The notes beneath the pieces were generated by a model. It was not told where the DNA came from, did no database searches, and saw only the letters and a list, made by a program, of their open reading frames with translations. Source: an uncultured Candidatus Saccharibacteria bacterium (GTDB lineage: Bacteria > Patescibacteriota > Minisyncoccia > UBA6257 > UBA11618). Taken from it: 32,000 nt of DNA. The stretch covers positions 1 through 32,000 of the forward strand of contig CAYSNH010000001.1 of assembly GCA_964432405.1 (NCBI GenBank). Reading direction: 5' to 3'. Below are positions 2,744 through 25,919 of this stretch, in pieces (position 1 is the stretch's first letter; every line of letters begins with the position of its first letter). The position numbers and the translations under genes were made by a program.

Positions 2744-2745
2744 CT

Positions 2746-3584: not shown

Positions 3585-3602
3585 TTTACCTCCCAATTGG
3601 TT

Positions 3603-3608
3603 TATAAT
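3603..3608 (+). promoter_or_regulatory. Possible -10 box TATAAT ahead of the + strand glycan operon
   Basis: TATAAT at 3603-3608 in the 54-nt gap between truB and the flavoenzyme gene, 30 nt before the TTG at 3639. Confidence 0.3.
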
Positions 3609-3638
3609 ACTACCACTTAAATCAACCCCATTGTTATT

Positions 3639-5090: not shown

Positions 5091-5466
5091 TCTAAGTTTA
5101 TTCTATTATTACGTCATTTTTGCTGGCATCGCTACGCTAGTGGACTTATCAATCCTCTACTCTCTCACTGAGTTTGGTAATGTGTGGTATTTTCACTCCG
5201 CTATTATTGGTTATTCTGCTGGCATGATAGTTAACTATGTACTCAACAAGTATTTCAATTTCAAAAACTACAGTAAAAGAATAATCTCTCAATTTGGCAT
5301 CTTTACTGCCGTAGCAATAGTGGGATTAGGCCTCAACCAGCTTATCATCTACCTCCTAGTGGAGTTTGCTGATATCTGGTACATGGCTGCCAAAATCATT
5401 GCTATCGGCATCGTGATGTTCTGGAGTTTTTTTGGTCACAAACAATTAACTTTCAAGCATGAGTAA
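5065..5466 (+). CDS. GtrA-family membrane protein
   Basis: 133 aa with four TM helices. FAGIATLVDLSILYSLTE and WSFFGHKQLTFK match the GtrA-like pattern (N-terminal ...DL.lLy.L and C-terminal ..F...r..vF). Confidence 0.75.
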   Translation: MNEASGRNNLSLFYYYVIFAGIATLVDLSILYSLTEFGNVWYFHSAIIGYSAGMIVNYVLNKYFNFKNYSKRIISQFGIFTAVAIVGLGLNQLIIYLLVEFADIWYMAAKIIAIGIVMFWSFFGHKQLTFKHE

Positions 5467-6274: not shown

Positions 6275-6275
6275 T

Positions 6276-6983
6276 ATGAAACGTTTTAAATTATTTATCT
6301 ACAACCTATTTTTCTCTCGTCGCCGCTACTCCATGAGAGCAGCTCGTTGGCGTAATGCTTTTCACTTAATGCCTTTTGAGAAGCTACTTTATCGAACTAT
6401 GGCTTTTATACTGGGCAATAGTATAGAAGGTGACTATTTAGAGTTTGGTACCTATCAGGGTCGAAGCTTTGCTAGCGCTCATCATATTGCTCAATTTCAT
6501 AAATTAAAAAATATGAGATTTTATGCTTTTGATTCTTTTGAAGGGTTGCCTGAGATCGAGGGAGTTGATCAAGAGGGGTTTTGTAATTTTACAAAAGGAG
6601 ACTTCCTTTGTTCTCAGGAAAAGTTTAAAAAAATATTAAAAAGAAGAGGGGTTGATCTTAATAAAGTTCAACTTATACCAGGCTGGTTTGATAAAGTCTT
6701 AAATGATGAAACTAAAAAATCCCTACCTATTAAAAAAGCAGCTGTTATCTGGATAGATTGCGATCTTTATGAGTCCACTGTTCCTGTTCTCAATTTCATT
6801 ACGGACTACGTTCAAGATGGCACTATTATTATCTTTGATGATTGGTTTGCTTTTCGCGGCAATCCTAACAGAGGCGAACAGCTAGCTTTTAGAGAGTGGC
6901 TGACTAAAAATCCTCAAATAACCGCCTCTGAGTTTAGAAAGTTTGATTGGAGTGCTAATTCTTTTATTCTTCATCATGATTAA
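6276..6983 (+). CDS. TylF/MycF-type class I SAM-dependent O-methyltransferase
   Basis: GDYLEFGTYQGRSF (SAM-binding glycine motif) and IWIDCDLYESTVPVLNFITDYVQDGTIIIFDDW match the macrocin-O-methyltransferase family signature (D.DlYeST...L). Confidence 0.8.
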   Translation: MKRFKLFIYNLFFSRRRYSMRAARWRNAFHLMPFEKLLYRTMAFILGNSIEGDYLEFGTYQGRSFASAHHIAQFHKLKNMRFYAFDSFEGLPEIEGVDQEGFCNFTKGDFLCSQEKFKKILKRRGVDLNKVQLIPGWFDKVLNDETKKSLPIKKAAVIWIDCDLYESTVPVLNFITDYVQDGTIIIFDDWFAFRGNPNRGEQLAFREWLTKNPQITASEFRKFDWSANSFILHHD

Positions 6984-11131: not shown

Positions 11132-11622
11132 AGAAATTAATTAATAAAGTTGTGGAGGTAAATGATCATAACTTTAATTTATTTGCTTATTTAATTTTAG
11201 CTTTGATAATTATTGATGTTCTAACAAATAATTTTTTAAGCTCTGTTGGCATTAACAAAACAGCCTTACTTACCTTCCTAGGCATTAGCGCTATTATTAA
11301 AATCTACTTTAAGACTAAAAATAAGGTAATTATTGACGGTGATGTTATTCAAAACATTTCTCTTCGTAAAACAACCCTAGCCTTACTTAGCATCGCTAAA
11401 AAAATAATAGGCAGCAAGAAAAGAAGTGTTGTAATAGCTATTGTTGTAATTGGAGCAATCTTTCTATACCAAAAACCAACACAAAAAATTATTAATATCT
11501 TCTCTCAATCTGGTATTGCTAATTACGTAATTTATGGTATTTTAATAACTCTGTATATATTAATAGTTTATATTAATTTTTATGAAAAAGACTCTCAGGA
11601 AAATAATCCATCGATTAAATAA
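11128..11622 (+). CDS. Membrane protein (164 aa), unknown function
   Basis: Four hydrophobic segments. ATGA overlap with the upstream gene. No recognisable motif. Confidence 0.45.
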   Translation: MKKLINKVVEVNDHNFNLFAYLILALIIIDVLTNNFLSSVGINKTALLTFLGISAIIKIYFKTKNKVIIDGDVIQNISLRKTTLALLSIAKKIIGSKKRSVVIAIVVIGAIFLYQKPTQKIINIFSQSGIANYVIYGILITLYILIVYINFYEKDSQENNPSIK

Positions 11623-12859
11623 ATTTAGCAGAAAAACCGCCAAATTAGATTTAAAATATTTAGCCAAGAGTGGTAGTTGGCGTATTAGTGAAAATCTTGG
11701 TGGTATTTTAACTTCCTTTTTAATCTCAATTGCCTTTGCTAACCTACTACCCATAAAAGATTTTGGTATTTATAACTACCTACTTTCCATTGCTAATATT
11801 TTTACCTTTCTAACCCTGAGCGGCATGGGGGTAGCCGTCATTCAATCGGTGTCTAAAGGTTATGACAAGTCCTTGTTGACAGCTATAAAAATAAGATTGC
11901 GCTGGAATTTTGTTTACACATTAGGGCTCTTATCTTTTGCTGGCTATTACTTCTTTAAAGGTAATTTTCTTTTTGCTGCATCATTGTCTGTATTAGGAAT
12001 TATAACTCCTCTAACTAGTACCTATAATCTATACAATTCTTTCTTGATGGGTAAAAAGGAATTTAAGCAATCAGCCATATACTCACTTATTAAAAATATT
12101 TTACGACTAGCTGTCACCATTGGGGTGCTATTTATAACAAATAGCGTATTAGCCCTTATAATAGCTTTTGCCTTGGTCTCCTTTATCCCTAATATTTATT
12201 TCTATTTTAAAGTTAAGAATAAATTTAAAATATCCGATAATAAAATACCTGAAAAAGAAGGTGGTTTCTTAATTAATTTTGGCCTACACCGAAGCTTTTT
12301 AGACGCCCTATCCACCTCTGTTGGTTATATAGATAGCATTATCTTATTCCAATTTACCGGGCCAGTTCAATTAGCGTTTTATACTTTTGCTAAAAATATC
12401 CCTCAGATAGGAAATGGATTAATTAAAAACACTCTAAGCATTTACTTCCCTAAAATTGCTAATAAAAGATTAGAAGATATTAGAAAGATTTTTTTTCTTA
12501 GAATAATCCAAGGAATGGTTATTGGATCTCTTGTTGCTATAGCATTGATCATAATAACGCCTCACGTATTTGGAATTATCTACCCTCAATATATAGGCTC
12601 CATCTTCTACGCTCAATTATTATCATTAACAGCTATTTTTGTTATTCCTCGTGCTTATGCAGGCTATATCCTAAATGGTCATCGAATGATTAAGTCTATC
12701 TATTATTCTAGTGTCACAACCAATATCACTCGCCTCATCTTATTTGCCACCCTAGGTTATTTCTTTGGCATCATGGGAATCATAGCGGCTGTAATAATTG
12801 GTGACTTATTTGGCACCATCATACCTATCATAGTACTTCAAAGAGATATGCCTAGATAA
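11582..12859 (+). CDS. Wzx-like oligosaccharide flippase (MOP/polysaccharide biosynthesis protein family)
   Basis: 425 aa with about 12 TM helices. The N-terminus LKYLAKSGSWRISENLGGILTSFLISIAFANLLPIKDFGIYNYLLSI is typical of PST-family flippases. Confidence 0.7.
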   Translation: MKKTLRKIIHRLNKFSRKTAKLDLKYLAKSGSWRISENLGGILTSFLISIAFANLLPIKDFGIYNYLLSIANIFTFLTLSGMGVAVIQSVSKGYDKSLLTAIKIRLRWNFVYTLGLLSFAGYYFFKGNFLFAASLSVLGIITPLTSTYNLYNSFLMGKKEFKQSAIYSLIKNILRLAVTIGVLFITNSVLALIIAFALVSFIPNIYFYFKVKNKFKISDNKIPEKEGGFLINFGLHRSFLDALSTSVGYIDSIILFQFTGPVQLAFYTFAKNIPQIGNGLIKNTLSIYFPKIANKRLEDIRKIFFLRIIQGMVIGSLVAIALIIITPHVFGIIYPQYIGSIFYAQLLSLTAIFVIPRAYAGYILNGHRMIKSIYYSSVTTNITRLILFATLGYFFGIMGIIAAVIIGDLFGTIIPIIVLQRDMPR

Positions 12860-12869
12860 AAAATCTAGG
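12851..12869. terminator. Short hairpin at a convergent gene junction (possible bidirectional terminator)
   Basis: CCTAGAT (12851-12857), AAAAA, ATCTAGG (12863-12869). The TAA of the flippase and the TAG (minus strand, 12865-12867) of the dehydrogenase fusion both lie inside the hairpin. The stem is only 7 bp with low GC and no clear U-tract. Confidence 0.3.
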
Positions 12870-14973
12870 TCATATTACGCAAATGCGCCTTATCAATCAC
12901 AAAGTCAATTCTTTCTCCTTCAAGATAACGACAAACCTTATCAACTAAAGTCACTGCCGCAGCCTCATACATTTGATTGTTAGATCCTGAAATATGCGAA
13001 GTAAGAAAAACATTAGGAAGCTTTCTTAACTCACTTGTTTTAGATAAAGGCTCTCCATCAAAAACATCTAAACAAGCGAATATATCTTCTTTTTTCAATC
13101 TAGAAATTAAAGCGTCTGTATCAACAATCTCTCCTCTTGAGGTATTAATAAAAATGGCGCCCGGTTTCAAAGAGTTGATTTGATCTTTACCAAAACTTTT
13201 TCTAGTTCTATCGGAAAGACCTCTATGCAAAGAAACTATATCAGCTTGCAATACCTCGGCTAGACTAGCTTTTTTGACCTCCATTCTTCGAGCTTCTTCA
13301 TCTGACAAATGTTCAGAATAAATACTAACCTTACAACCAAACGGCTTAAGATATTCAATAAATTTCCTAGAAATAGAACCATAACCAATCAAACCAATGG
13401 TTGAGCCATGGAAATTATTTTTTATCTGCTTACCACCATCTCCTGACTTTTTAACTTTTGGCTCAATGACCCTCCACAAAGGAATTAATAATGGTTTTAT
13501 TTTTTGAACAAGGGGATTTTTAGCTGCTTTCATGGCAAAAGAATAAAAACCTCCTTGTGTTTTAAATCCCCAACCTCCTTTACGCATAATATCGTGAGAT
13601 AATGAAGCTCGCCTTATTCCAACAATAGCCTGCATTAAACAAAATTCCGCCACAGTATCAGCATAAACATCGGAAACGTTTATTAGAGGAATATTTCTTT
13701 TTACTACCACATCAGGATTATATTTCTTTACCGAAGCCCCCACTACTCCCACTACCTTAATATTAGGCAAATTAACTAACCACTCCTCTTTTATCGGCTC
13801 ACCTCCTCTTCCGGTTATAATTGCCACCACCTTTTCTCTCTCTTCTTGATTAAGAGAGGAGATATCTTCGGAAGAAATAATATTATATAGATCAATAAGT
13901 TTTGGTAATTGAGAAGCTATAATTCCTGGATTAGTGACAACAATAGACTCCTCTTTATCAATCTCTTCTTTTACTGTCTTTTTAATAGAATCTAGGTCGA
14001 TGTTACATTTATTCCAATCAATTTCACCTGAAAAACCAGCTTCTGCTAAGTTAGTTAAATAAAAACTAGCAATTAACTTATCTAAAGAGTGTCGTATAGC
14101 AACGCCCTCATTAATAGCCAAGAAAAAATCTTTATGCTCATCATAAAAACCTCTTGCCTCTGGAGAATTACCAAACTGTTCGGTTGTAGATTGATTGTTT
14201 TTAAATATTGTTAAATCGCCATCCAAACATTCAAAACTCATCCCATAACTATGCAAAACATATTTTTCAACTCGTGATCCAGCACTATTATTAGAAGATA
14301 GCGTAGCATGACTACCATTCTCCCATTCTAAAATAATAGAAAAATTTTGATCTTTATCTCCCGCAACTCTATTCTTCTTTGAATAAATTGATTTTGGTCT
14401 ATCGCCCACTAAATAACAAAGGACATCAACCGCGTGAATACAGTTAGCTCCAAACCATGTTTTAGCCCCGTAAGGAACAGGCTCATCAACAACCGCCTTA
14501 TTAAACAAGGCCTCTAAGCTATACGCCTTAAAGTTATCACCCAAATAATCTACCACTCTACTAATATTCTTCTGGAATCTCCTATTAAAACCTCCTACAG
14601 CTATTAAATTAGATTTATTAGCAATACTTATTAACTCAGCTAATTGATCAACTGTTTGTGTCAAAGGTTTTTCAATAAAGACATGCTTGCCAGAAAGCAA
14701 AGCTTCCTTACCATACTCATAATGCATCTTAGTTGTACCTAATACATACACCGCATCAACATCGTCATTAAAAACTTCCTTGGCATTAGTAACTGCTTTT
14801 TCAAAGTTAAATTTATCAGCTGCTCTCTTAGCTGCCTCATTATTTATATCGCAAATAATTTTTAAATTACAAAAGCCCTCATCAGCCAACCTATTAAGAA
14901 TAGGCAAATGAATTTTTGAACTCATCTCTCCTGCTCCAATAACAGCGACATTTATTTTTCTTTGTAATTTCAT
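12865..14973 (-). CDS. Fusion protein: N-terminal Gfo/Idh/MocA oxidoreductase + C-terminal D-isomer-specific 2-hydroxyacid dehydrogenase
   Basis: N-terminal half: INVAVIGAGEMSSKIHLPIL and GKHVFIEKPL (Gfo/Idh/MocA). C-terminal half: GSTIGLIGYGSISRKFIEYLKPFGCKV, FINTSRGEIVDTDALISRLKKEDIFACLDVFDGEPL and LTSHISG (2-Hacid_dh NAD-binding and catalytic blocks). Confidence 0.8.
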   Translation of the reverse strand: MKLQRKINVAVIGAGEMSSKIHLPILNRLADEGFCNLKIICDINNEAAKRAADKFNFEKAVTNAKEVFNDDVDAVYVLGTTKMHYEYGKEALLSGKHVFIEKPLTQTVDQLAELISIANKSNLIAVGGFNRRFQKNISRVVDYLGDNFKAYSLEALFNKAVVDEPVPYGAKTWFGANCIHAVDVLCYLVGDRPKSIYSKKNRVAGDKDQNFSIILEWENGSHATLSSNNSAGSRVEKYVLHSYGMSFECLDGDLTIFKNNQSTTEQFGNSPEARGFYDEHKDFFLAINEGVAIRHSLDKLIASFYLTNLAEAGFSGEIDWNKCNIDLDSIKKTVKEEIDKEESIVVTNPGIIASQLPKLIDLYNIISSEDISSLNQEEREKVVAIITGRGGEPIKEEWLVNLPNIKVVGVVGASVKKYNPDVVVKRNIPLINVSDVYADTVAEFCLMQAIVGIRRASLSHDIMRKGGWGFKTQGGFYSFAMKAAKNPLVQKIKPLLIPLWRVIEPKVKKSGDGGKQIKNNFHGSTIGLIGYGSISRKFIEYLKPFGCKVSIYSEHLSDEEARRMEVKKASLAEVLQADIVSLHRGLSDRTRKSFGKDQINSLKPGAIFINTSRGEIVDTDALISRLKKEDIFACLDVFDGEPLSKTSELRKLPNVFLTSHISGSNNQMYEAAAVTLVDKVCRYLEGERIDFVIDKAHLRNMT

Positions 14974-15854
14974 AATCTAAATACCTTTTTTAACATTCTT
15001 TTAGCTCGACGCATCAAAATGCTTAAAGCAGATACGTCGTTATAATAAACACCTATATCAAATAATGAGTCCTTAATCTCAAAAATGTTATTAAAAGAAT
15101 AACGAGGATATGATGTTATATCACGATTAGAAACGCCGTGCAAAGCATCAACGGAATTAATAAACATTGCCAATGAATTGTCTTGATATGGCAACTCACC
15201 AACCTTCTCACAATATTTATAATCAATCAACCTTGCCCCATGAAATCTAGATTTTTTTCTATCTTTATGTTTATAAAGCTCTAAACTACCACCCACAGAG
15301 TCATCTTCTAATTGTTTAAGATAGAAATTTCCAATAACCATCTTATGCTCATTATCAAGATGAGGAATTTTAACAGACGATGGCATCTCTCTTACCGGCG
15401 TATCAATACATATTTCTGCATCAATAAGAACATCGCAATTTTCAAAACTATCTATATTTCTAATTCCAACACGGAGATTATCAAAATTATTAAATACTGG
15501 CCGCAGGTGAGGATGTTGCTCATAAAGAGCTTCCCCAAAAATATCTAAAAATTTCCTTAAATAATCCTTAGTTAAATGAGCTTCAATAAACTCTCTCCAA
15601 ATTGGAGCAATTGAAGAATCTGATAAAATATCTGCTACTCGACATCTTATTTTACGATTACTTGGAACCTCTGTTCCTCTAGCCACTCCAAGACAATGCC
15701 AACCATAATCAAATTTTAATAAATCTTCTATACTAGGATAAGCTGCTCGTAACTCATCAGCCAAAGATTGATCTAATACCTGTTTTTTAACTATATAAGG
15801 AAACGGATCCCTCTTAACATCTGTTTTATTAATATTATCAAGAATAGTTTTCAT
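14970..15854 (-). CDS. 2OG-Fe(II) oxygenase-like protein
   Basis: N-terminal DPFPYIVKKQVLDQSLADEL resembles the PFPh.vidnFL start of P4H-like 2OG oxygenases. There is an HxD motif (IPHLDNEH), then GGSLELY, then a distal His in NSLAMFINSVDALHGVS. Confidence 0.55.
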   Translation of the reverse strand: MKTILDNINKTDVKRDPFPYIVKKQVLDQSLADELRAAYPSIEDLLKFDYGWHCLGVARGTEVPSNRKIRCRVADILSDSSIAPIWREFIEAHLTKDYLRKFLDIFGEALYEQHPHLRPVFNNFDNLRVGIRNIDSFENCDVLIDAEICIDTPVREMPSSVKIPHLDNEHKMVIGNFYLKQLEDDSVGGSLELYKHKDRKKSRFHGARLIDYKYCEKVGELPYQDNSLAMFINSVDALHGVSNRDITSYPRYSFNNIFEIKDSLFDIGVYYNDVSALSILMRRAKRMLKKVFRL

Positions 15855-15878
15855 AAAATTAAAAAGATTTTTTATTAA

Positions 15879-17732
15879 TTATAATTTTATATTAAAAGAC
15901 TTCGCCCAAATTTGAAAAGAAACAATTGGCATAAATTTCTTCAAATCGACAGTTGAATAAGATGATTTATTTAAATATTGATCCTTAATATATTCAAAAT
16001 CAAATAAATCATTAGTTTCCCTATAATAATCCTCTGATAAAATATCTCTCACCATTACACCAAAACGACCATTCATCCATTGACTCACTGGCGCCCTCCA
16101 ACCAGTTTTCCGCTTATTTATTACATAGTCAGGCAATCTATTTTCATAAGCCCTCTTCATCATTATCTTAAGATTATGAGGAGCTATCTTTTCTCTAGAA
16201 GAAATACTATTAGCATAATTAATTATGTCAGAATCAAGTAACGGAAAACGCCCTTCCATTCCAAACCTCATGGTTATCTTGTCTGTTCTAATAAATTCTT
16301 CATCTGCTAACCAAAAAAGGCGATCTAAATTAGCTAACTCATTCTCAATATCATCACCAGCCTCAACAAACATTGAGTCTAATAAATAATTTTTTAAATC
16401 AATTAAATCATAATTAAATAATTTAAAAGACTTGTTTTTAAATGGTAGGTGAGATTTATTAGTCAATTTATTAATATAAATCCACCTATCAAGTAAATTG
16501 TTTAGCTCAAAATTTTGTAAAGCATTTTTTAACTTTATACTTTTATTTAAATTTTTAATTTTAAAAGCTGTATTAAGAATTGAAGCTGGGTATTTATTAT
16601 ACAAATTATTTAATCTAGAAAATAAATATTTGGGATAACCTAGAAATAACTCATCTCCACCACTACCACTCAAAACTATAGTAACATCTTTACTAGCCTC
16701 TCTCGCTAATAGCCAATAGGCGGCCAGAGAGGGGTTGTAACGAGGCTCTTCTATTGATTTTACAACCTCTTCTGTCGCTTTTATAAAATTATCCTCATCA
16801 ATTAATAACTCACAATGATCTATCCCATAATCACTACTAAGTCTTTTGGCAATTCTCGCATCTTCATTAATAGCTTCATCATCAACATCAAATCTGGTTG
16901 TATATGATTTGCTAATATTACTTTTATTCTTCATTAACTCATAAAGAACCGCTGTTGAATCTAAACCTCCGCTCAAATAAATTCCGAAAGGTCTCAAGCC
17001 CATTGTGTGATCCAGGACTGATTTATTTATTTTCTCTCTTAAAACTTCTGGATCAAAGTTATTGACTGTCTTTTTCAACTGACCAAGCCAAGTCTTTGTT
17101 AATAAGCCATCTTTAAGATCTAACTCTATATACTGACCTGGACAAACCTTTTTAATGCCCTCTATTAAAGTTCTTTGACCGGGAACATATCCTAGCATAA
17201 AGAAGGCATTTGCTGAGTCTTTATCCAGCCTTCTTGATACCTCATGAGTTAAAATACCTCGGATTTCTGAAGAAAAAATAATCTTTTTATTAAAATGATG
17301 ATAATAAAGAGGCTTAATGCCAGAAAAATCACGCGCTAAAAAAATCTTATTATTTTTTCTATCATAAAAAGCAAAAGCAAACATTCCATTTAATTTGGAT
17401 ATGAAACTAGGGCCTTCTTTTATAAGGCCCTGAAACAAAACCTCTGTATCGCAATCAGTATAAAATTTACTACCTAATTTTTCCAAATACCTTCTTAAAG
17501 AACGATAATTATATATCTCGCCATTATAAGTTAAAACATAATTATTATCCTCCGAAACAAATGGCTGCCTAGATTTTTTAGGTAATTCAGTAATAGCTAG
17601 CAAGTTATGACCAAAAGATATCTTATCATTAACAAAGTGACCTGTACCATCAGGTCCTCTATGATTAGTTGCTTCATTCATTTTTAACAACAATTCCTTG
17701 TTATTAAAATTAAATCCATTAATTGCGCACAT
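15879..17732 (-). CDS. Asparagine synthase (glutamine-hydrolysing) family amidotransferase, AsnB-like
   Basis: Nucleophile Cys2 (MCAINGF), the Ntn glutaminase block YNGEIYNY, and the PP-loop YLSGGLDSTAV. 617 aa. It lies in a glycan operon, so it is probably a sugar or carboxylate amidotransferase rather than a housekeeping AsnB. Confidence 0.8.
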   Translation of the reverse strand: MCAINGFNFNNKELLLKMNEATNHRGPDGTGHFVNDKISFGHNLLAITELPKKSRQPFVSEDNNYVLTYNGEIYNYRSLRRYLEKLGSKFYTDCDTEVLFQGLIKEGPSFISKLNGMFAFAFYDRKNNKIFLARDFSGIKPLYYHHFNKKIIFSSEIRGILTHEVSRRLDKDSANAFFMLGYVPGQRTLIEGIKKVCPGQYIELDLKDGLLTKTWLGQLKKTVNNFDPEVLREKINKSVLDHTMGLRPFGIYLSGGLDSTAVLYELMKNKSNISKSYTTRFDVDDEAINEDARIAKRLSSDYGIDHCELLIDEDNFIKATEEVVKSIEEPRYNPSLAAYWLLAREASKDVTIVLSGSGGDELFLGYPKYLFSRLNNLYNKYPASILNTAFKIKNLNKSIKLKNALQNFELNNLLDRWIYINKLTNKSHLPFKNKSFKLFNYDLIDLKNYLLDSMFVEAGDDIENELANLDRLFWLADEEFIRTDKITMRFGMEGRFPLLDSDIINYANSISSREKIAPHNLKIMMKRAYENRLPDYVINKRKTGWRAPVSQWMNGRFGVMVRDILSEDYYRETNDLFDFEYIKDQYLNKSSYSTVDLKKFMPIVSFQIWAKSFNIKL

Positions 17733-19824
17733 TTTCTGATAATTTTAAAATTTTAAATTGTTCGAGATCTCTCTCTGTATCTATCCCAATACTATGCCAA
17801 TCACCTATTACTACCCCTATTTGATATCCATTTTCTAAAGCTCTTAACTGCTCTAATTTTTCTAACTTTTCTAAATTACTCTGAGGAAGTTTCACAAATT
17901 CAAATAGAAAATCTTTTCTATAAGCATAAATACCTAAATGATGAAAAGCTCCATTTACTTGAGAGCGAGTAAAATAAAGAGCTCTGCCTTTATTGTCGAT
18001 TACCGCCTTAACATTACCTTGATTTGCCGCATCAATAGAATCGCCAAATGGAGTAACTGCAGTTACTATTTGTGAGTTATTATCTTCTTTTATCTTTCTT
18101 ACTATTTCAATAATAACCTCTGTTGGCATTAACGGCTCATCACCCTGAATATTAACAATTATTTCAGGATCTACATCGGTTAAATTATTAATTGCCTCTG
18201 CTATTCTATCTGTTCCTGATAAACAATTACTACTTGTCATAACCGCCCCACCTCCTTCTTTAGAAATTATATCAAATATCTCCTGCGAATCAGTTGCAAC
18301 AATCACCTCATCCAAAACATCTGCTTTCTGAGCATTCTTCCAAGTGTGATAAATAAGTGGCTTACCCCCTACATCAGCCAACATTTTTTTAGAAAGACGC
18401 GTAGAATGCAATCGAGCAGGAATTACCCCTATAACCTTAGGTGATTTTAAATTTTTTTTTAAAGTCTCATTCATATCAACTTGAGTGGTTATTGTATTTT
18501 TTCTTTCTTTTAAAATATCTATCGAAGTACTAGCCACGCTCTTCATCTGACTCTCCAAATCAACTGAATTGTCAGTTAAAAAATCCGCCAAACCACCATC
18601 AACTAAATTATCAGCTTGGGTATTATCACTTCTCAAAACCATCACCGGCTTTCCTGATTCAATCATCTCATACAATAATGTAGAGTATGTTCCAATTACT
18701 AAATTAATCTCCTTAAGGATCTCCGCATTTAGCTCTTGAATAATATTAAAGTTAGGACGACTTTTAAAATCATGTAGCTCAGAAATCTTTAGCTGCTCTT
18801 CAATATCTTGATCTGGTCTAGCTTTAAAATATATTTTTAATTTTGGTATTAATAGCAACTGCTTAATGCAATTCTTAACAGCCTCTTTATCAGCTTTAAG
18901 CTCAAAAGGAATTAAAACTACCAATTGGCCATCAAATTGAGTAGCCATAAAATCATTATTAGAATAAAAGGGCTGCCCGCCAATAACAACTCTTTTTTTA
19001 TAAAAGTTATAAACTGGGCTTAAAGATATTAATTCATCTCTCCAATATTTATTCCATACCATAAACTTATCGGGAGCAACACATTTTTCTGGAGGGATGT
19101 TGTAATTGATCCAGCCCGTTAAGTATTTATTAAATCTTCCGTGTTGAAATGAAACAACCTTAATACCAAGCTCTTGAGCGGCAATAATAAGTTCATTATA
19201 ATATCGAGGATCATCAATTGTTAATAGAGTATTAATGCCTGTTAGTTTTAAATACCATCTAATAAACTTAATTTTTTTCTCACTTTGAACCGTGTTAGCT
19301 AACAACCCATCAATAACCTCTCTTAAATAATCTCGCTGATCTTCTTCGAATTCATCAAGTTCTAATTGATAACTAACTTTTTTAGAAGGAAAAAGTAAAT
19401 TGGCTAAATCAATAAAAAAAACGGGCTTGGCATTATATAAATTAGCTTTGAGACCATGAACAACCTCCCCGTATTTAATATTGTTCTTTTCTAAAAAATT
19501 AAAGACTTTTGCTAAACGAAAATCTTTTTTTGATTTAGCTATTGAATACACTAATATTTTTGTCTTATTAATTCTTAATTTTAAAATCAATAATAAAGCT
19601 AAAATAGAATACTGAATAATGTTTTTAATTCTTTTAAGAGTATTTATAATATTTTTTTTCTGCTTCTTAACAGAACGGTTAACAAGAGCATCCCAAAGCC
19701 AAACCTGATTAAAACTCCAAGTAGAATAATGCTTGTATCTACAGAAATCATAAATAGGAATACCCTCAATCTTTAAGAGATTGATTTTCTTTAAAATTTC
19801 CAGATTTTTATCTAAAATTTTCAT
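17719..19824 (-). CDS. kdsB: Fusion protein: N-terminal membrane-anchored unassigned domain (about 460 aa, GT-B/capsule-synthesis-like?) + C-terminal 3-deoxy-manno-octulosonate cytidylyltransferase (KdsB)
   Basis: C-terminal ~240 aa: VIGVIPARLHSTRLSKKMLADVGGKPLIYH, VIVATDSQEI, GTDRIAEA, NIQGDEPLMP, HLGIYAYRKDFL and LEQLRALENGYQIGVV are canonical KdsB blocks. The N-terminal part has one TM helix (IIQYSILALLLILKL) and no motif I can assign with confidence. Confidence 0.8.
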   Translation of the reverse strand: MKILDKNLEILKKINLLKIEGIPIYDFCRYKHYSTWSFNQVWLWDALVNRSVKKQKKNIINTLKRIKNIIQYSILALLLILKLRINKTKILVYSIAKSKKDFRLAKVFNFLEKNNIKYGEVVHGLKANLYNAKPVFFIDLANLLFPSKKVSYQLELDEFEEDQRDYLREVIDGLLANTVQSEKKIKFIRWYLKLTGINTLLTIDDPRYYNELIIAAQELGIKVVSFQHGRFNKYLTGWINYNIPPEKCVAPDKFMVWNKYWRDELISLSPVYNFYKKRVVIGGQPFYSNNDFMATQFDGQLVVLIPFELKADKEAVKNCIKQLLLIPKLKIYFKARPDQDIEEQLKISELHDFKSRPNFNIIQELNAEILKEINLVIGTYSTLLYEMIESGKPVMVLRSDNTQADNLVDGGLADFLTDNSVDLESQMKSVASTSIDILKERKNTITTQVDMNETLKKNLKSPKVIGVIPARLHSTRLSKKMLADVGGKPLIYHTWKNAQKADVLDEVIVATDSQEIFDIISKEGGGAVMTSSNCLSGTDRIAEAINNLTDVDPEIIVNIQGDEPLMPTEVIIEIVRKIKEDNNSQIVTAVTPFGDSIDAANQGNVKAVIDNKGRALYFTRSQVNGAFHHLGIYAYRKDFLFEFVKLPQSNLEKLEKLEQLRALENGYQIGVVIGDWHSIGIDTERDLEQFKILKLSENVRN

Positions 19825-20789
19825 ATAATATGATTCTCTATAATGTCATGAAGATGAATAATGCTTCTTGGCTTATTATCACTCACAACAACCAAAGAGG
19901 TAATCTTATTCTCCTCCATAATTTCAATCGCTTTCTGCAAAGAATCGTTTTCATTAATAGTTATTGGTTGCTTAGTCATGGCCATAGTCACTCCGACCTC
20001 TATTGAAAATTTATCTGATAGAATAAATCTTCTTATATCTCCATCAGTTAAAATGCCTAACAAAAATCCAGCCTTATTAACAACGCAAGTAACACCAAGA
20101 CCTTTCTTAGTTATTTCCTGAAGAGCCTCGGCAAATGATTGTTGATCATGAACCAAGGGCAATCTGTCTTCTTCTTTAAGGATGTTTTTAATTAAAGTAT
20201 TTTTTAAACCTAATTGTCCGCCTGGATGAAAATTATTAAAATCAGCTCTAGCAAATCCTCTCTGCTTACTAACAGCACTTGCTACAAGATAACCAATTAT
20301 TAAAGAAACCGTGGTGCTAGCCATAGGAGCAGTATCAAATGGAGAACCTTCATTATCAATTTTATAAATAATCTTATAATCAACCAATCGAGCCAAAGAA
20401 GAATCTTTATTACCAGCAATTAAAACGGTTTTTGTGCCTATTTTCTTAAAATGCTCTATTAATTTAATAAGCTCCTGGGTCTCACCACTGTTAGAAAGAG
20501 CCAGAATAGTATCATTACCATCAACAACTCCTAAATCACCGTGAAAAGCTTCTGTAGGGTGCAAAAAGACAGCTTTTATGCCAAGGCTATTAAAGGTAGC
20601 GGTCAATTTGTTAGCAATATGACCCGACTTACCCAGCCCAGAAAACACCACCTTGCCATCACATGACTTAATCAGCTCCACAATCTCACAAAAATTGTCA
20701 TCTAAAACATCTTCCAAAGAAGAGCCGGCTATCAAAATGTGACTTAATGTTTCCTGACTAATATTAATTATCTCCTGTCGTTTTTCCAT
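19821..20789 (-). CDS. kpsF: KpsF/GutQ/KdsD-family arabinose-5-phosphate isomerase (SIS + tandem CBS)
   Basis: SIS block GKVVFSGLGKSGHIANKLTATFNSLGIKAVFLHPTEAFHGDLGVV...ILALSNSGET. It is followed by a C-terminal CBS pair (ILTDGDIRR ... ITSLVVV). Confidence 0.85.
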   Translation of the reverse strand: MEKRQEIINISQETLSHILIAGSSLEDVLDDNFCEIVELIKSCDGKVVFSGLGKSGHIANKLTATFNSLGIKAVFLHPTEAFHGDLGVVDGNDTILALSNSGETQELIKLIEHFKKIGTKTVLIAGNKDSSLARLVDYKIIYKIDNEGSPFDTAPMASTTVSLIIGYLVASAVSKQRGFARADFNNFHPGGQLGLKNTLIKNILKEEDRLPLVHDQQSFAEALQEITKKGLGVTCVVNKAGFLLGILTDGDIRRFILSDKFSIEVGVTMAMTKQPITINENDSLQKAIEIMEENKITSLVVVSDNKPRSIIHLHDIIENHII

Positions 20790-20892: not shown

Positions 20893-21747
20893 ATGGCTAA
20901 AAATACAGTTTTTATTCATACCAATAATAAACAACTACTTGGAGCTAAAATTGCCCATTACGCTATCTTCAAGCACCTGAATGATAAAGATTCTGTTGAT
21001 GTAAGAATTATTAATGTTGATAATTTAAGTGTCTTTAAAGATTTTTCTAATAAAAAATATTTACGAAAAGGGACTGAGATAACTTATAACCCTCAGGACT
21101 TACAATCATTTACCCTATCTCGATTTATGCCGCCTCAATTAATGAATTATGAGGGTAAGGCTATTGTTATAGATCCAGATATATTCCCTTTAATCGACAT
21201 TAATCAATTATTTAATATCGAGCTGCAAAATAATGCCATCGCCTGCTGCCCTAAAAAAGATGATTGGGATACTAGCGTGATGCTAATGGACTGCTCCCAA
21301 TTAAAACACTGGCGCATAGAAAATATTATCAATGAGCTAATTAATAAAAAAACCGATTACGTTGATTGGATGTCCTTAAAAATGGAGAAGAATATTCTCC
21401 CTCTACCTAGAGAATGGAATAGTCTGGACAGCCTTTCTGATGAGACTAAACTACTTCACACTACTCAAAGATTAACTCAACCATGGAAAACTGGCCTGCC
21501 CATCGACTTCACTAGAAACAAGCTACCAAAACTCTTTGGTCTTATTCCTCGAGAATGGGTCTTAAAAATAAGAGGTAAATACCCTTCTAAGTATCAAGCT
21601 CATCCTGATAAAAATATAGAAAGATTTTTTATTCAATTAATAAAAGAATCTCTAGAGAATAATTTTGTTTCTAGAGAATTTATTGAAAAAGAAATAGAAG
21701 TTAAGCATGTTCGCCCTGATCTTTTGCTACTGATCGATAAATCTTAA
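20893..21747 (+). CDS. GT8-like nucleotide-diphospho-sugar glycosyltransferase
   Basis: The DxD-type motif AIVIDPDIFPLIDINQLF and the later SVMLMDCSQLKHW resemble GT8 blocks (YLDaDiiv...L and nsGVml.n...wr). It is the only + strand gene between 12.9 and 32 kb. Its last 20 nt lie inside the 331-bp repeat. Confidence 0.5.
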   Translation: MAKNTVFIHTNNKQLLGAKIAHYAIFKHLNDKDSVDVRIINVDNLSVFKDFSNKKYLRKGTEITYNPQDLQSFTLSRFMPPQLMNYEGKAIVIDPDIFPLIDINQLFNIELQNNAIACCPKKDDWDTSVMLMDCSQLKHWRIENIINELINKKTDYVDWMSLKMEKNILPLPREWNSLDSLSDETKLLHTTQRLTQPWKTGLPIDFTRNKLPKLFGLIPREWVLKIRGKYPSKYQAHPDKNIERFFIQLIKESLENNFVSREFIEKEIEVKHVRPDLLLLIDKS

Positions 21748-24098: not shown

Positions 24099-25919
24099 TT
24101 ATATAGTTACTTTATACTTCTTAGCCCAGATTTGAAAAATTAATAAGTTCCAAATAATAATTAAATTATATTCTTTTTTTTCTTTATGATTCTGCAAGAT
24201 CTTTTTAATAGCCTGCCAATCAAATAGATTTTTGGTTGGTGAATAATATTCTTCTGATAAAATTTTCTCAACCATTTCATAAATTTTTGGACGACGCAAC
24301 CATTTAGCCCCAGGTGATATCCAGCCTCTTTTTGGCTGATGATATAAAAAGGAGGGTAACTCTCTTTTAAATGCTTCTTTTAAAATTATCTTTGTATTAA
24401 AAACATTAACCTTATTTGAAACAGGTATTCTATTAGCCATTTCTACCACCCTTTTATCTAATAAAGGAACTCTAATCTCAAGACCATGAGCCATACCCAT
24501 CTTATCAGTTCTCATCAAACATTCGTCAACCAGCCAAGTAGAGCGATCAGTTCTCATAAATGAATCTACAAAGCTCTCTCCTTTTTTCCAATTATAATTA
24601 AAAAACTCCTTAGGATAGTCATTTATATAATCCCTTTTAACAATCTGATCTAATAATGATTTTTTTTGAAACATAAACCGCTGAAACATTGCAAATCCTA
24701 ATAGATTATCTATTCTTTTCAATTTTTTATTAAAATTAAATAATTTTCTAAGCCATTGAGGCAGCTTGTTGTATGTCTCCACTATTTTGCTATAACGATA
24801 ACGCTTATAACCACCAAGCAACTCATCACCTCCATCACCCGCTAACACAACACTCACTTTCTGCTTGGTAAATTTAGCCAAACTAAACATAGCTACTGTA
24901 GTTGGATTAGCAATTGGCTCATCAAGGTGCCAAACTATTTTCTCTAAGTCTTCTAAAAGATTATTTTCAGAAATATATAAATTATTATGATCTGCCTTAT
25001 AATAATCAGCTGTTTTCTTTGCCAACTCAGCATCATCATTAAATTTTTTACTCTCTTCTTCCTCATTCAACTCATACCCAGCTGAGAAAGTATTAACCTT
25101 GTCTCTAATCTTAGTCACGCAATTCAAAATTGAAGTCGAATCAAATCCTCCTGAAAGGTAAATTCCCAAGGGGCGATCAGAAATTAATTGTTTTTTAGTA
25201 GCCTGACAAATCTCATTTTTTAACTCCCTAGCTAATTCTTTTTTAGATTTTTCAACTAGCTTCTCATTAGACTCCTCCCAATACCTTTCAACGTCAAATT
25301 GATTATTTTTCAAAGTAGCTCTGTGAGCCGGCATTAATTTAAAGATATCCTTAAACATAGTTTTAGGACCAGGAACATAAAGAACTCTTAAATATAAATT
25401 GAAGGCATCCTTATCCAAAATTCTTGGCACATCATGCTCCAAAATAGCTTTAATCTCTGAAGAAAAAATAAACTTATTACCATCCCAGAAATAATATAGA
25501 GGTTTAACTCCCATGTGATCTCTAGCTAAAAATAATTCTTTATTTCTCTCATCCCAAATAGCAAAAGCAAAAATACCTTCAAAATACTCCACGCACCTAC
25601 CTCCCCATTCCTGATACGCAGCTAAGATAACTTCCGTATCACTATCACTTCTAAAACTATATTTATCCTTTAATTGTTCTTTTATTTTTTTAAAATTATA
25701 AATCTCGCCGTTATAAGTGATAATCAAATTACCCTCAGCGCCCTTCATTGGCTGAGAAGCTTGCTCGCTGAGATCTATAATGCTCAATCTATTATGACCT
25801 AAAGAAATATTGTCATTAATAAAATGGCCCGTACCATCTGGGCCACGATGTTGAGTTGTCTCGTTCATTTTAAGAAGCAGCTCTTTGTTATTAAAATTAA
25901 AACCATTAATTGCGCACAT
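24099..25919 (-). CDS. Asparagine synthase (glutamine-hydrolysing) family amidotransferase, AsnB-like (second copy)
   Basis: MCAINGF nucleophile Cys2, YNGEIYNF, and the PP-loop YLSGGFDSTSI. 606 aa. Confidence 0.8.
   Translation of the reverse strand: MCAINGFNFNNKELLLKMNETTQHRGPDGTGHFINDNISLGHNRLSIIDLSEQASQPMKGAEGNLIITYNGEIYNFKKIKEQLKDKYSFRSDSDTEVILAAYQEWGGRCVEYFEGIFAFAIWDERNKELFLARDHMGVKPLYYFWDGNKFIFSSEIKAILEHDVPRILDKDAFNLYLRVLYVPGPKTMFKDIFKLMPAHRATLKNNQFDVERYWEESNEKLVEKSKKELARELKNEICQATKKQLISDRPLGIYLSGGFDSTSILNCVTKIRDKVNTFSAGYELNEEEESKKFNDDAELAKKTADYYKADHNNLYISENNLLEDLEKIVWHLDEPIANPTTVAMFSLAKFTKQKVSVVLAGDGGDELLGGYKRYRYSKIVETYNKLPQWLRKLFNFNKKLKRIDNLLGFAMFQRFMFQKKSLLDQIVKRDYINDYPKEFFNYNWKKGESFVDSFMRTDRSTWLVDECLMRTDKMGMAHGLEIRVPLLDKRVVEMANRIPVSNKVNVFNTKIILKEAFKRELPSFLYHQPKRGWISPGAKWLRRPKIYEMVEKILSEEYYSPTKNLFDWQAIKKILQNHKEKKEYNLIIIWNLLIFQIWAKKYKVTI

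Follow-up and report, generated by a model that had tools for sequence, protein, structure and literature searches.

The LPS pathway runs through KdsD, KdsA, KdsC, KdsB and WaaA, and Kdo is also placed outside LPS by dedicated GT-B-type transferases, namely, the beta-Kdo transferases KpsS and KpsC (GT107) of the group 2 capsules of E. coli and Neisseria, which are exported by the KpsMT ABC system. The retaining Kdo transferases WbbB (GT99) and KrkA (GT140, E. coli K13 capsule), likewise GT-B-derived, add Kdo to O-antigen or capsule repeats. The Kdo 3-hydroxylase KdoO is a 2OG/Fe(II) oxygenase functionally tied to Kdo, and AsnB-like amidotransferases occur in glycan loci, for example WbpS, and PseA for acetamidino-pseudaminic acid; we know of no amidated Kdo. 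A KpsF/KdsD-type arabinose-5-P isomerase is present in Clostridium tetani, an LPS-less Gram-positive, the fate of its product being, to our knowledge, not established. Group 2 capsule loci of E. coli carry only kpsF and kpsU, with no local kdsA or kdsC (bioRxiv 10.1101/2025.08.07.669119), and a Parcubacterium genome, one member of the Patescibacteria, has been described without lpxC and kdsA (PMC5220378).

Here we analyse a window of 32,000 nucleotides from a marine member of the Patescibacteria, in which an earlier note had proposed a five-gene operon that makes and tailors an activated Kdo-like sugar. As a whole this interpretation is partly supported. With moderate confidence, we propose that a conserved core, consisting of a GT8-like gene divergent from kpsF, followed by a GT-B::KdsB fusion, serves to add Kdo, or a 2-ulosonic acid very close to it, to a surface polysaccharide that is flipped by Wzx.

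Organisation of the locus

The features on which the analysis rests are the following.

11582..12859, plus strand: Wzx-type flippase (Polysacc_synt), convergent with the operon
12851..12869, minus strand: hairpin, possible terminator, spanning the fusion-gene stop codon between convergent genes; pattern match only
12865-14973, minus strand: Gfo/Idh/MocA::2-HADH fusion ORF, 702 aa
12865..13953, minus strand: D-2-hydroxyacid dehydrogenase (2-HADH) domain; 2-Hacid_dh_C at residues 515-662, PF02826 E = 1.6e-41
13954..14973, minus strand: Gfo/Idh/MocA oxidoreductase domain; residues 7-124, PF01408 E = 9e-25
14970-15854, minus strand: 2OG/Fe(II) oxygenase ORF, 294 aa
15879-17732, minus strand: AsnB1 ORF, 617 aa
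17719-19824, minus strand: GT-B::KdsB fusion ORF, 701 aa
17719..18444, minus strand: KdsB domain (CMP-Kdo synthetase), C-terminal part of the 701-aa protein, residues 463-691
18445..19824, minus strand: GT-B-fold glycosyltransferase-like domain of an uncharacterised family, N-terminal 460 residues of the 701-aa protein
19821-20789, minus strand: KpsF/GutQ-type isomerase ORF, 322 aa
20814..20841, minus strand: promoter-like site (TTGATG, 16-nt spacer, TG-extended TATAAT), 25 nt upstream of the kpsF start; consensus match only
20893..21747, plus strand: GT8-like protein, 284 aa, divergent from kpsF; PF01501 26.6 bits, DPD motif
24099..25919, minus strand: second AsnB-type amidotransferase (AsnB2), kept in all close relatives

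The five ORFs described earlier as a one-strand operon do lie together on the minus strand, at the positions then given and with real domains. The account of their linkage by overlaps was slightly loose, as three of the four junctions overlap (by 4, 14 and 4 nt), the fourth, between AsnB1 and the 294-aa gene, being a 24-nt gap. Promoter-like sites are not enriched across the region (50 found, against 40 +/- 6 in shuffled sequence), and the hairpin has a stem of 7 bp with three G-C pairs. The rest of the window holds the Polysacc_synt flippase and many GT4 genes, which bears out its earlier description as a Wzx-type glycan locus, together with two sulfotransferase domains, methyltransferases, a PMT_2 GT-C protein, a deacetylase and AsnB2. 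The latter is 37% identical to AsnB1 overall, but the first 20 residues are identical, and 36 of the first 45 are shared. Since no UDP-glucose dehydrogenase is encoded in the window, Kdo is the only acidic sugar for which the locus visibly provides.

As in the group 2 capsule loci, copies of an isomerase and a CMP-Kdo synthetase stand in a polysaccharide locus without kdsA or kdsC, and a dedicated GT-B-type protein is a candidate for transferring Kdo outside LPS. Unlike those loci, the window has a Wzx system (its relatives also Wzy) and no Capsule_synth domain, its transferase candidate is fused to KdsB, lacks QxxxD and has K-x-R for (K/R)xHP, and its host, according to reports on the group, lacks an LPS pathway from which KdsA and KdsC could come. 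The LPS pathway shares the isomerase and cytidylyltransferase chemistry, but genes for lipid A, WaaA, KdsA and KdsC are absent from the locus.

Entry and activation steps of the Kdo pathway

The first two genes had been taken to encode the entry and activation steps of Kdo synthesis, and, judged by residues and family cutoffs, both enzymes are catalytically intact. KpsF, with a SIS and two CBS domains, scores 264 bits against TIGR00393 (cutoff 204) and has 36% identity with KdsD of E. coli; all its active-site residues are kept, with K59, H88, E111, E152 and H193 (E. coli numbering) invariant in the alignment. The KdsB domain exceeds the cutoffs of TIGR00466 (189 bits vs 155) and NF003952 (259 vs 193), PseF reaching merely 53 bits, and matches solved KdsB structures at E = 1e-41. 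It retains the CTP, Mg and Kdo motifs, namely, R10, R15, K19, Q98-G-D100-E-P, H181, Y185, E210-Q211 and the D of the GxDT motif. The doubt whether this domain might group with cytidylyltransferases for another sugar is answered by profile scores in favour of the Kdo enzymes over the Pse/Neu-type ones.

A scan against Pfam or NCBIfam took in all ORFs of the window with 195 aa or more, together with some that are shorter, and revealed no kdsA, kdsC, waaA or lpx domain among them; tblastn with E. coli KdsA and KdsC (E <= 0.01) gave no match in the window or its flanks (5.4 kb and roughly 8 kb). The absence of these genes from the window, already remarked from the sequence, is therefore upheld, for kdsA and kdsC by both approaches, and no KdsA or KdsC homologue occurs in any related locus (roughly 30 examined). 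Local absence of kdsA and kdsC says little by itself, because the group 2 capsule loci of E. coli generally lack both genes as well; if, however, the whole genome lacked KdsA and KdsC, the known route to Kdo would be impossible. Given intact KpsF and KdsB in a group reported without LPS, the probable destination of Kdo, or of a close analogue, is a surface polysaccharide and not LPS.

A GT-B-like domain fused to KdsB

The earlier note had described the 701-aa protein as an unknown domain joined to KdsB. The KdsB part stands, and the other domain can now be described as GT-B glycosyltransferase-like, with KpsF as its conserved partner. Residues 1-460 match no Pfam family, and a library search recovered 559 cluster representatives of the same Pfam-less family, mostly standalone proteins of about 485 aa. 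The AlphaFold2 model (pLDDT 90.8) matches GT-B enzymes in Foldseek with a probability of 1.0, the best matches being UDP/TDP-dependent GT-B enzymes and epimerases, none CMP-dependent. No Kdo-transferase-family Pfam match was found in any of 38 family members, and no sequence relationship to WaaA (GT30) or KpsS/KpsC (Capsule_synth) is detectable.

Invariant residues of the family include Q227, H228, E308 and R336; Q227-H228 and the likewise invariant D204-D205 sit in the N-terminal Rossmann domain. The C-terminal Rossmann half carries F-K334-x-R336-x-D and S381-T382-x3-E/D386, in the loops after its second and fourth predicted strands. In KrkA, S271-S272-x3-E276 binds the CMP phosphate and ribose (PMC12887879), and the spacing from Ser/Thr to acid is the same in the window GT-B domain as in this element of the WbbB/KrkA type. 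From strand order, rather than superposition, the K-x-R element would lie at the place of the (K/R)xHP motif. Nevertheless, WbbB and KrkA show no sequence similarity to the domain and are not among its top 50 Foldseek matches, and in place of their nucleophile motif it has the invariant residues of the N-terminal Rossmann domain. Tried as a Kdo transferase of known type, the domain fails the motif tests, as QxxxD is absent and Arg replaces the His of (K/R)xHP. We consider it a candidate Kdo transferase, and it is the most informative part of the block.

Conservation of the module and its accessory genes

Outside the window lineage, the neighbourhood of the GT-B gene was examined in 22 non-redundant loci. 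In 13 of these, KpsF is the gene immediately upstream; another has it within 5.4 kb, and three of the others have no upstream sequence at all. KdsB is adjacent or nearby in three of the 22: L033 and L043 carry it as a separate adjoining gene, and L012 has it at a distance of 9 kb. Most Patescibacteria loci have KpsF and the GT-B gene and no KdsB within the sequence available. The fusion with KdsB belongs to a marine lineage that includes the 69%-identical L027, and L043, from a distant lineage with a GT-B identity of only 33%, has the unfused order KpsF-GT-B-KdsB-2OG-MT-AsnB. Genome matches of the family are Patescibacteria in seven of eight cases. The GT8-like protein is a conserved partner of the module, with homologues (43-58% identity) adjoining KpsF or the GT-B gene in L008, L010, L011, L015, L021, L029, L031 and L037. 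Flippase homologues occur near the GT-B gene in eight other loci, seven of which also have Wzy_C-TPR.

Searched for across genomes, the five-gene block holds together in part: KpsF, GT-B, KdsB, 2OG oxygenase and AsnB recur jointly in distant lineages, but the Gfo::2-HADH fusion does not. Nor is it a fixed unit, since AsnB1 is deleted in two 98%-identical strains (L001 and L002), which retain traces of the two gene ends, and the fusion is limited to the narrow marine lineage of the window, a methyltransferase taking its place in L027. The AsnB1 deletion is recent, and the gene is accessory and strain-variable, in contrast to WbpS and PseA, which it otherwise resembles as a glutamine-dependent enzyme with Cys2 in a polysaccharide locus, beside a CMP-ulosonic-acid gene. 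It has GATase_7 and Asn_synthase domains, scores 362 bits against TIGR01536 (cutoff 267) and shares 55%, 49% and 44% identity with the AsnB proteins whose genes neighbour the GT-B gene in L008, L027 and L043, respectively.

The 294-aa protein, which has only a sub-threshold match to 2OG-FeII_Oxy_3 (19 bits, distant PF13640) and no detectable sequence match among solved structures, is a predicted 2-oxoglutarate/Fe(II) dioxygenase of the prolyl-4-hydroxylase-like class. H165, D167, H239 and R251 (the HxD...H...R set) are invariant in 33 sequences, and the AlphaFold2 model (pLDDT 85) is a double-stranded beta-helix whose top Foldseek matches are PolD, PasI, bacterial P4H and PHD2. Homologues follow the GT-B gene in L009, L014, L015, L021, L027, L035, L037 and L043. 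The enzyme is tied to Kdo genes by genetic linkage, much as KdoO is tied to Kdo by function, and no Kdo 3-hydroxylase is found among its top 50 fold matches. In the fusion protein, the EKP and GFNRRF motifs of the Gfo domain can be read in the translation; the 2-HADH domain has phosphoglycerate dehydrogenase as best solved match (E = 4e-28), every NCBIfam match being far under the family cutoff. The proposal that AsnB1, the oxygenase and the fusion act on Kdo rather than on another residue is not borne out, the oxygenase having neither a sequence match to a solved structure nor a Kdo 3-hydroxylase among its 50 best folds, and an amidated or hydroxylated Kdo is an inference.

Proposed pathway and alternative explanations

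In the pathway that we favour, KpsF, whose enzyme type is clear, would convert ribulose-5-P into arabinose-5-P, the flux being presumed, and free Kdo would come from a Kdo-8-P synthase and a phosphatase encoded outside the locus. The KdsB domain, again of clear enzyme type, would make the labile CMP-Kdo, and the fused GT-B domain may hand Kdo straight to a lipid-linked oligosaccharide at the cytoplasmic membrane face, as gene fusion, gene neighbourhood, fold and motifs suggest. The recurrent accessory 2OG dioxygenase and AsnB1 would probably modify Kdo itself or adjacent residues, the former by hydroxylation and the latter by conversion of a carboxyl into an amide; the SAM methyltransferases that accompany the module in relatives (e.g. 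L027 and L043) may have a similar role, and the Gfo::2-HADH fusion would be a lineage-specific redox addition. Against this reading, KdsA and KdsC were not found in the window, its flanks or the related loci, the GT-B domain shows no sequence relationship to WaaA or KpsS/KpsC, departs from the known motifs and has best folds that are not CMP-dependent, most Patescibacteria loci have no KdsB in the available sequence, and AsnB1 is dispensable in sister strains.

A less probable alternative is that only KpsF and GT-B::KdsB form a pathway, for Kdo supply and transfer, and that AsnB1, the oxygenase and the Gfo::2-HADH fusion tailor different residues in a repeat unit that is heavily decorated (sulfated, methylated, amidated), being co-transcribed by chance. 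The clean deletion of AsnB1 with the remaining block retained fits this, as do the lack of the fusion in L027 and L043, both with KpsF, GT-B, KdsB, 2OG and AsnB, the occurrence of the wider 2OG family outside glycan loci (e.g. L023), and the second AsnB, two sulfotransferase domains and several methyltransferases of the locus. However, 2OG and AsnB recur beside the GT-B gene in L008, L009, L014, L015, L021, L027, L037 and L043, and such recurrence in many distant lineages exceeds random assortment of tailoring genes; moreover, the window provides no other acidic sugar for AsnB to amidate.

Rather unlikely is a route free of KdsA, towards a 2-ulosonic acid other than Kdo or some other unit derived from arabinose-5-P, in which, for example, Gfo would oxidise arabinose-5-P to the aldonate and 2-HADH would oxidise C2 to give a 2-keto acid, in parallel to the Epd/PdxB steps in the making of pyridoxal phosphate, the product then being activated by the KdsB-like domain and transferred by the GT-B domain. 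It would account for the missing KdsA and KdsC in all related loci and for the Parcubacterium genome without kdsA (PMC5220378), and 2-ketogluconate reductases and PdxB are 2-HADH enzymes. A paralogous GT-B locus, L042, even has a separate 2-HADH, SDR, HAD phosphatase, CTP_transf_3 and Gfo directly upstream, with no PEP-condensing synthase in view; yet the cytidylyltransferase of that locus resembles PseF rather than KdsB, and the identity of its Gfo and 2-HADH genes to the fusion domains is no more than 26-28%. L027 and L043 have KpsF, GT-B and KdsB but no Gfo or 2-HADH gene in the sequence available (10.3 kb and 6.0 kb, respectively), the KdsB domain scores at equivalog level for true KdsB and keeps the conserved residues of the E. 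coli enzyme, and E. coli capsule loci lack kdsA and kdsC too. Ordinary LPS inner-core genes of a Gram-negative host, with lipid A genes elsewhere, would explain the presence of KpsF and KdsB, which belong to the enzyme types of KdsD and KdsB in the LPS pathway, but this is very improbable: a protein cluster (at least 90% identity) is named Patescibacteria group bacterium at NCBI, the genomes that best match the GT-B family are likewise Patescibacteria, WaaA, Lpx and Lpt domains were not found in about 45 kb, and the locus is of the Wzx/GT4 type.

What is new is a previously undescribed GT-B-like family without a Pfam entry, fused in the marine lineage to the last enzyme of activated-Kdo synthesis. 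Unlike that of Clostridium tetani, the isomerase of the window has a conserved genetic partner in this family, with KdsB in several lineages, which gives the product of an arabinose-5-P isomerase a testable destination.

Organization of the operon and of the surrounding glycan locus

The operon comprises five consecutive ORFs, whose domain content, as judged by Pfam and NCBIfam profile scores, is that described in the earlier note:

20789-19821, minus strand, KpsF (322 aa)
19824-17719, minus strand, fusion of a GT-B domain and a KdsB domain (701 aa)
17732-15879, minus strand, AsnB-type amidotransferase, AsnB1 (617 aa)
15854-14970, minus strand, predicted oxygenase (294 aa)
14973-12865, minus strand, Gfo/Idh/MocA::2-HADH fusion (702 aa)

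Three of the four junctions overlap, by 4, 14 and 4 nt, and the fourth, between AsnB1 and the oxygenase gene, is a gap of 24 nt. Pattern matching alone points to a possible promoter with an extended -10 element, 25 nt upstream of kpsF, and to a hairpin across the stop codon of the last gene. The rest of the window is a large glycan locus encoding Wzx, a PMT_2-type GT-C, six GT4-type genes (one of them a double GT4), TylF-type methyltransferases, a deacetylase, GtrA, a flavoprotein and a second amidotransferase, AsnB2. The Wzx-dependent glycan locus proposed from the sequence was thus recovered by the domain scan (Wzx, GT4s, PMT_2). Rfam and tRNA scans of the window found nothing.

Three features of this locus deserve mention in their own right. 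Two sulfotransferase domains, one of them fused to a GT4, are encoded at 5459-6274 and in the C-terminal half of 30027-31928, and would predict a sulfated glycan. The pair formed by the amine-oxidase/GLF-like flavoprotein and the PMT_2-type GT-C (3639-8604) is also found in a distant locus, L037 (973-5016), beside a KpsF-GT-B module. Finally, two proteins adjoin Wzx in all close relatives of the window, and are candidates for a Wzy-like polymerase or ligase:

9236-11131, 631-aa protein with about 12 hydrophobic segments and no Pfam match
11128-11622, 164-aa membrane protein with no Pfam match

KpsF and the KdsB domain

KpsF matches PF01380 and PF00571, that is, a SIS domain and a tandem CBS pair, and scores 264.4 bits against TIGR00393 (cutoff 203.7). 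The residues K59, H88, E111, E152 and H193 (E. coli KdsD numbering), which we take to form the active site of arabinose-5-phosphate isomerases, are invariant when the window KpsF is aligned with E. coli KdsD and with five homologues from Patescibacteria. The KdsB domain (residues 463-691 of the 701-aa protein) scores 189.4 bits against TIGR00466 (cutoff 155.2) and 259.3 against NF003952 (cutoff 193), and 53.2 bits against the PseF model (cutoff 205.7); solved KdsB structures match it at E = 1e-41, and NeuA at E values of at least 5e-4. With TIGR00466 and NF003952 above their cutoffs and PseF below, the domain does not group with a non-Kdo family of cytidylyltransferases, an outcome that the earlier note had regarded as fatal to its reading. 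When aligned to E. coli KdsB, the domain keeps the PAR-x4-R-x3-K loop, QGDEP, HLGIY, LEQLR and the GxDT aspartate, which is the second Mg-binding Asp. In the same motif comparison, a standalone KdsB from a related Saccharibacteria locus (L012) lacks H181 and the last Asp. Judged by these residues, KpsF and the KdsB domain of the window look functional.

A GT-B family outside the known Kdo transferases

Residues 1-460 of the 701-aa protein have no Pfam match. A full-library search with this region retrieved a family of 559 cluster representatives at E <= 0.001, nearly all of them standalone proteins of about 485 aa, and tblastn of a plasmid collection gave no match. The AlphaFold2 model built on the family alignment (pLDDT 90.8, pTM 0.89) predicts a GT-B fold, namely, two Rossmann-like domains with an interdomain cleft, for which Foldseek returned CalG4, PglA, MurG and UDP-GlcNAc 2-epimerases at probability 1.0 and TM of about 0.5-0.6. 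Before the first Rossmann domain lies a moderately hydrophobic helix (residues ~61-85) that stays below the transmembrane threshold. Family-wide invariants of the N-terminal half are D204-D205-x-R207 and Q227-H228, and family-wide conserved positions of the C-terminal half are E308, K334-x-R336-x-D338, Q344 and S381-T382-x3-E/D386.

The possibility that this domain is a known Kdo or CDP/CMP transferase was ruled out by Pfam, PDB profile, hhalign and motif tests. None of 38 diverse family members matches the Capsule_synth (KpsS/KpsC) or Glycos_transf_N (WaaA) models at E <= 1; the PDB profile search gave just a weak GT28 match (E = 0.0013); and hhalign assigned a probability of 3% to a match with the L012 protein that resembles Capsule_synth. 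Retaining Kdo transferases have been defined by a QxxxD nucleophile motif and a CMP-binding (K/R)xHP motif (PMC12887879). QxxxD is absent from the family, the corresponding position being the invariant E308, with Pro in 14/38 and Asp in 11/38 members four residues on. Nor does the family have (K/R)xHP, which binds CMP in GT99, GT107, GT140 and sialyltransferases: at this position, assigned from strand order by placing K334-x-R336 on the loop that follows predicted strand 2 in the C-terminal domain, it shows K334 (33/38), any residue, R336 (38/38) and then P (14/38), so that Arg replaces His. By these tests the domain belongs to none of GT99, GT107, GT140 and GT30. The S381-T382-x3-E motif, in turn, is spaced like S271-S272-x3-E276, the KrkA element that binds the phosphate and ribose of CMP (PMC12887879). 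Taken together, the motifs make the nucleotide-binding half of the domain compatible with a CMP-linked donor.

Conservation of the gene neighborhood

In the genome collection, seven of the eight matches to the GT-B family come from Patescibacteria MAGs (Saccharibacteria, Paceibacteria and Parcubacteria), the eighth being from Bdellovibrionota. By combining a genome scan, a metagenome scan and contig look-ups we assembled 22 non-redundant loci outside the window lineage, with 25-34% GT-B identity to the window, and tallied the neighbors by a tblastn table and Pfam checks.

Table. Genes accompanying the GT-B gene in 22 loci outside the window lineage.
KpsF, directly upstream on the same strand: 13/22 (L010-L013, L029-L032, L034, L037, L043-L045); three of the 22 (L014, L033, L039) offer no sequence upstream of the GT-B gene
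KpsF, 5.4 kb away: 1/22 (L008)
Methyltransf_23 gene of about 240 aa, directly downstream: 9/22
Homologue of the divergent GT8-like gene: 8/22
Wzx, nearby: 8/22
Wzy_C-TPR, nearby: 7/22
Homologue of the 294-aa oxygenase, nearby: 7/22 (L009, L014, L015, L021, L035, L037, L043)
AsnB, nearby: 6/22 (L008, L009, L015, L037, L038, L043)

Beyond the immediate clade of the window, linkage of KdsB to the GT-B gene is seen in four lineages. The marine lineage, including a 69%-identical relative (L027), has the two fused; in L033 and in L043 (TIGR00466, 213 bits) KdsB is a separate gene adjoining the GT-B gene; and in L012 the distance between them is 9 kb, this locus also having Pse-type genes and, to go with these, a candidate transferase that is Capsule_synth-like. 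The gene order of L043, namely KpsF, GT-B, KdsB, oxygenase (35% identical), methyltransferase and AsnB (44% identical), is that of the window in unfused form. This repetition speaks strongly for joint action of KpsF, the GT-B protein, KdsB, the oxygenase and AsnB on one glycan feature. The search for the five-gene block across genomes that the earlier note had called for returned most of it: KpsF, GT-B, KdsB, oxygenase and AsnB recur together (L043), but AsnB1 and the Gfo::2-HADH fusion are not fixed. The GT-B::KdsB fusion itself is a classic signature of consecutive steps, and it makes biochemical sense because CMP-Kdo is short-lived.

L012 (3839-12839, Saccharibacteria) combines KpsF, GT-B and methyltransferase genes with a fused ABC exporter, a Capsule_synth-like protein of 489 aa, PseB-like and PseC-like genes, a second cytidylyltransferase and the standalone KdsB, a set that resembles a capsule-like system for two ulosonic acids in a CPR bacterium.

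The oxygenase and the amidotransferases

The 294-aa protein reaches 19.2 against the Pfam model 2OG-FeII_Oxy_3, which is below the gathering threshold of 27. Its long form is very rare, with two matches among 5.8 billion sequences and a 268-aa relative (P0262), and it is clearly homologous to the broad PF13640 family of about 238 aa. H165, D167, H239 and R251 are invariant in 33 sequences and correspond to the HxD...H iron triad and the 2OG-binding Arg, and the predicted structure is a double-stranded beta-helix (pLDDT 85.3) whose nearest folds in Foldseek are PolD, PasI, bacterial P4H and PHD2, at probability 1.0. Against PDB chains (phmmer, E <= 10) nothing relevant was found, the two matches, at E = 1.1, being to unrelated proteins, and the best 50 Foldseek matches include no Kdo 3-hydroxylase; on these two grounds a KdoO-like oxygenase was ruled out. 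The best two folds, PolD and PasI, act on eight-carbon octosyl-acid nucleosides. Since their E-values fall within tenfold of those of generic prolyl hydroxylases, we treat this model-based match as a curiosity only, from which no substrate should be read.

Two contexts of the broad oxygenase family, L022 and L023, gave no information on Kdo. In L022 (7713-10675), from a 5.8-Mb non-CPR genome, a short homologue overlaps a gene for a 763-aa Mito_fiss_Elm1 (GT-B-like) protein, in a locus with CDP-alcohol phosphatidyltransferases, an ABC exporter, GT4 and LptF/G; here the oxygenase family has another glycolipid setting.

AsnB1 has GATase and Asn_synthase domains, starts with MCAING... (Cys2) and scores 361.9 bits against TIGR01536 (cutoff 267.1). 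Among the close relatives of the window, L004-L007 have this gene, and L003 (73% identical) and L001 and L002 (98% identical) do not. In L001 and L002, the spacer (L001 12080-12230) still contains some 30 nt from the beginning of AsnB1 (ATGTGCATAATTAATGAAC...) and its last 3' bases; since remnants of both ends remain, about 1.75 kb was lost recently by internal deletion. Strains that share 98% identity are polymorphic for the presence of AsnB1. The 5' ends of AsnB1 and AsnB2 (window 17600-17732 and 25790-25919) encode exactly the same first 20 residues (MCAINGFNFNNKELLLKMNE) and share 36 of the first 45, against an overall identity of 37%, which suggests gene conversion or a common 5' module. 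As for the substrate, a weak argument can be made for the Kdo carboxylate, since the window provides for no other acidic sugar.

Organism and the source of Kdo

Close relatives of the window locus all come from marine metagenomes. The cobalamin adenosyltransferase of the window clusters at >= 90% identity with HCX45151.1, from a "Patescibacteria group bacterium" of Tara Oceans, and the flanks (L016 and L017) carry sigma-70, FtsZ and class II ribonucleotide reductase. An archaeal origin, which a low GC content and a DUF7231 match had brought into consideration, was rejected on account of the flanking sigma-70 and FtsZ genes and of the Patescibacteria name. None of lpxA-D, lpxK, waaA or the lpt genes occurs in about 45 kb of window plus flanks. 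A curated Parcubacterium genome is reported to make neither lipid A nor LPS and to be devoid of lpxC and kdsA, and the CPR cell envelope has been called chemically unclear (PMC5220378). The genomic context without LPS genes claimed for this operon thus appears to hold at the level of the phylum, Patescibacteria. We found no literature on Kdo, kdsA or kdsB in Patescibacteria or Saccharibacteria.

As the earlier note had observed, domains of the KdsA, KdsC, WaaA or Lpx type are absent from all scanned ORFs of the window. With the E. coli KdsA and KdsC sequences as queries, tblastn gave no match at E <= 0.01 in the window, its flanks, L001-L015 or L018, and none at E <= 1e-5 in L021 or L024-L040. 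Of the CMP-Kdo pathway (KdsD, KdsA, KdsC, KdsB), therefore, KdsA and KdsC are missing from the window, the flanks and the related loci. This local absence is not decisive, because E. coli capsule loci likewise carry kpsF and kpsU only, and rely on housekeeping kdsA and kdsC (bioRxiv 10.1101/2025.08.07.669119). The question of KdsA is nevertheless real, as an LPS-less phylum has no obvious housekeeping copy.

The last gene of the operon could in principle answer this question. Its product scores above Pfam gathering thresholds for PF01408 (88 bits), PF02826 (142) and PF00389 (38.7), and reaches no specific NCBIfam equivalog. In a bypass of KdsA, the Gfo domain would oxidise arabinose-5-phosphate to the aldonate and the 2-HADH domain would then make the 2-keto acid, as Epd and PdxB do. 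A paralogous locus, L042, lends this idea some credit, with separate 2-HADH, SDR, HAD phosphatase, CTP_transf_3 and Gfo genes immediately upstream of its GT-B gene; however, its cytidylyltransferase is PseF-like, whereas the KdsB of the window scores as a true equivalog. The fusion was found in the window clade alone; in its stead, L027 has a methyltransferase and then AsnB1. We downgraded the bypass because KpsF, GT-B and KdsB are retained in L027 and L043 without Gfo or 2-HADH genes, and consider it improbable, Kdo-8-phosphate synthase and phosphatase presumably encoded elsewhere being our preferred source.

The L042 operon (204-6224) is of interest by itself. It ends in a longer GT-B paralogue of 530 aa, its other products being 2-HADH, an SDR epimerase/dehydratase, a HAD phosphatase, the PseF-like CTP_transf_3 and Gfo/Idh/MocA, and no PEP-condensing synthase is visible in it. 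It may represent an uncharacterised pathway for a CMP-activated sugar acid that includes both domain types of the window fusion.

Proposed pathway and implications

The enzyme families, the intact catalytic residues, the fold, the fusion, the conserved neighborhood and the taxon are shown by the data; building on them, we propose a pathway in which we infer where the Kdo comes from, what the GT-B domain uses as donor and acceptor, and the whole of the tailoring chemistry. KpsF would convert ribulose-5-phosphate into arabinose-5-phosphate, from which the synthase and phosphatase encoded elsewhere would yield Kdo, to be activated to CMP-Kdo by the KdsB domain. The fused GT-B domain would then transfer Kdo to a lipid-linked oligosaccharide made by the neighboring GT4 and GT8-like enzymes. 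This unit would be flipped by Wzx and then perhaps polymerised or ligated by the 631-aa protein or by the PMT_2 protein. Decoration of the Kdo residue or its neighbors would fall to the oxygenase, to AsnB1 and, in relatives, to the methyltransferases.

The observation from which this analysis started, an operon for a modified Kdo-type sugar, stands as far as its genes are concerned, and its interpretation is supported in part. The locus probably represents capsule-like use of Kdo in an LPS-less phylum, by means of a probably new transferase family and a synthetase–transferase fusion. In broader terms, Patescibacteria, which have no outer membrane or LPS, would widely decorate their surface with Kdo, or an analogue derived from arabinose-5-phosphate, by means of CMP-ulosonic-acid transferases from a family that has so far gone unrecognised (559 cluster representatives, without a Pfam model, and with the motifs Q-H, E, K-x-R and S-T-x3-E), fused in the marine lineage to CMP-Kdo synthetase to channel the unstable donor; hydroxylation, amidation or methylation of the residue would give rise to undescribed Kdo derivatives, and in the boldest version the acid would be made without KdsA. 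We put forward this general proposal tentatively, as a possible reading that may well turn out otherwise.

The diversity of Kdo transferases is still growing, GT140 having been founded in 2026 (PMC12887879), and we put forward the GT-B family as a candidate for a new family of glycosyltransferases that use CMP-activated sugar acids. A natural synthetase–transferase fusion, if true, would offer a model for CMP-Kdo channelling and a tool for chemoenzymatic Kdo glycosylation. Should kdsA really be missing, the locus would hint at an as yet unknown fate of arabinose-5-phosphate. From the conserved KpsF–GT-B module, which several lineages complement with KdsB, one would expect organisms without LPS to have an acidic sugar of the Kdo type in a Wzx/Wzy polymer, and since CPR bacteria are attached to or dependent on other cells, such surface glycans are likely to matter for host contact.
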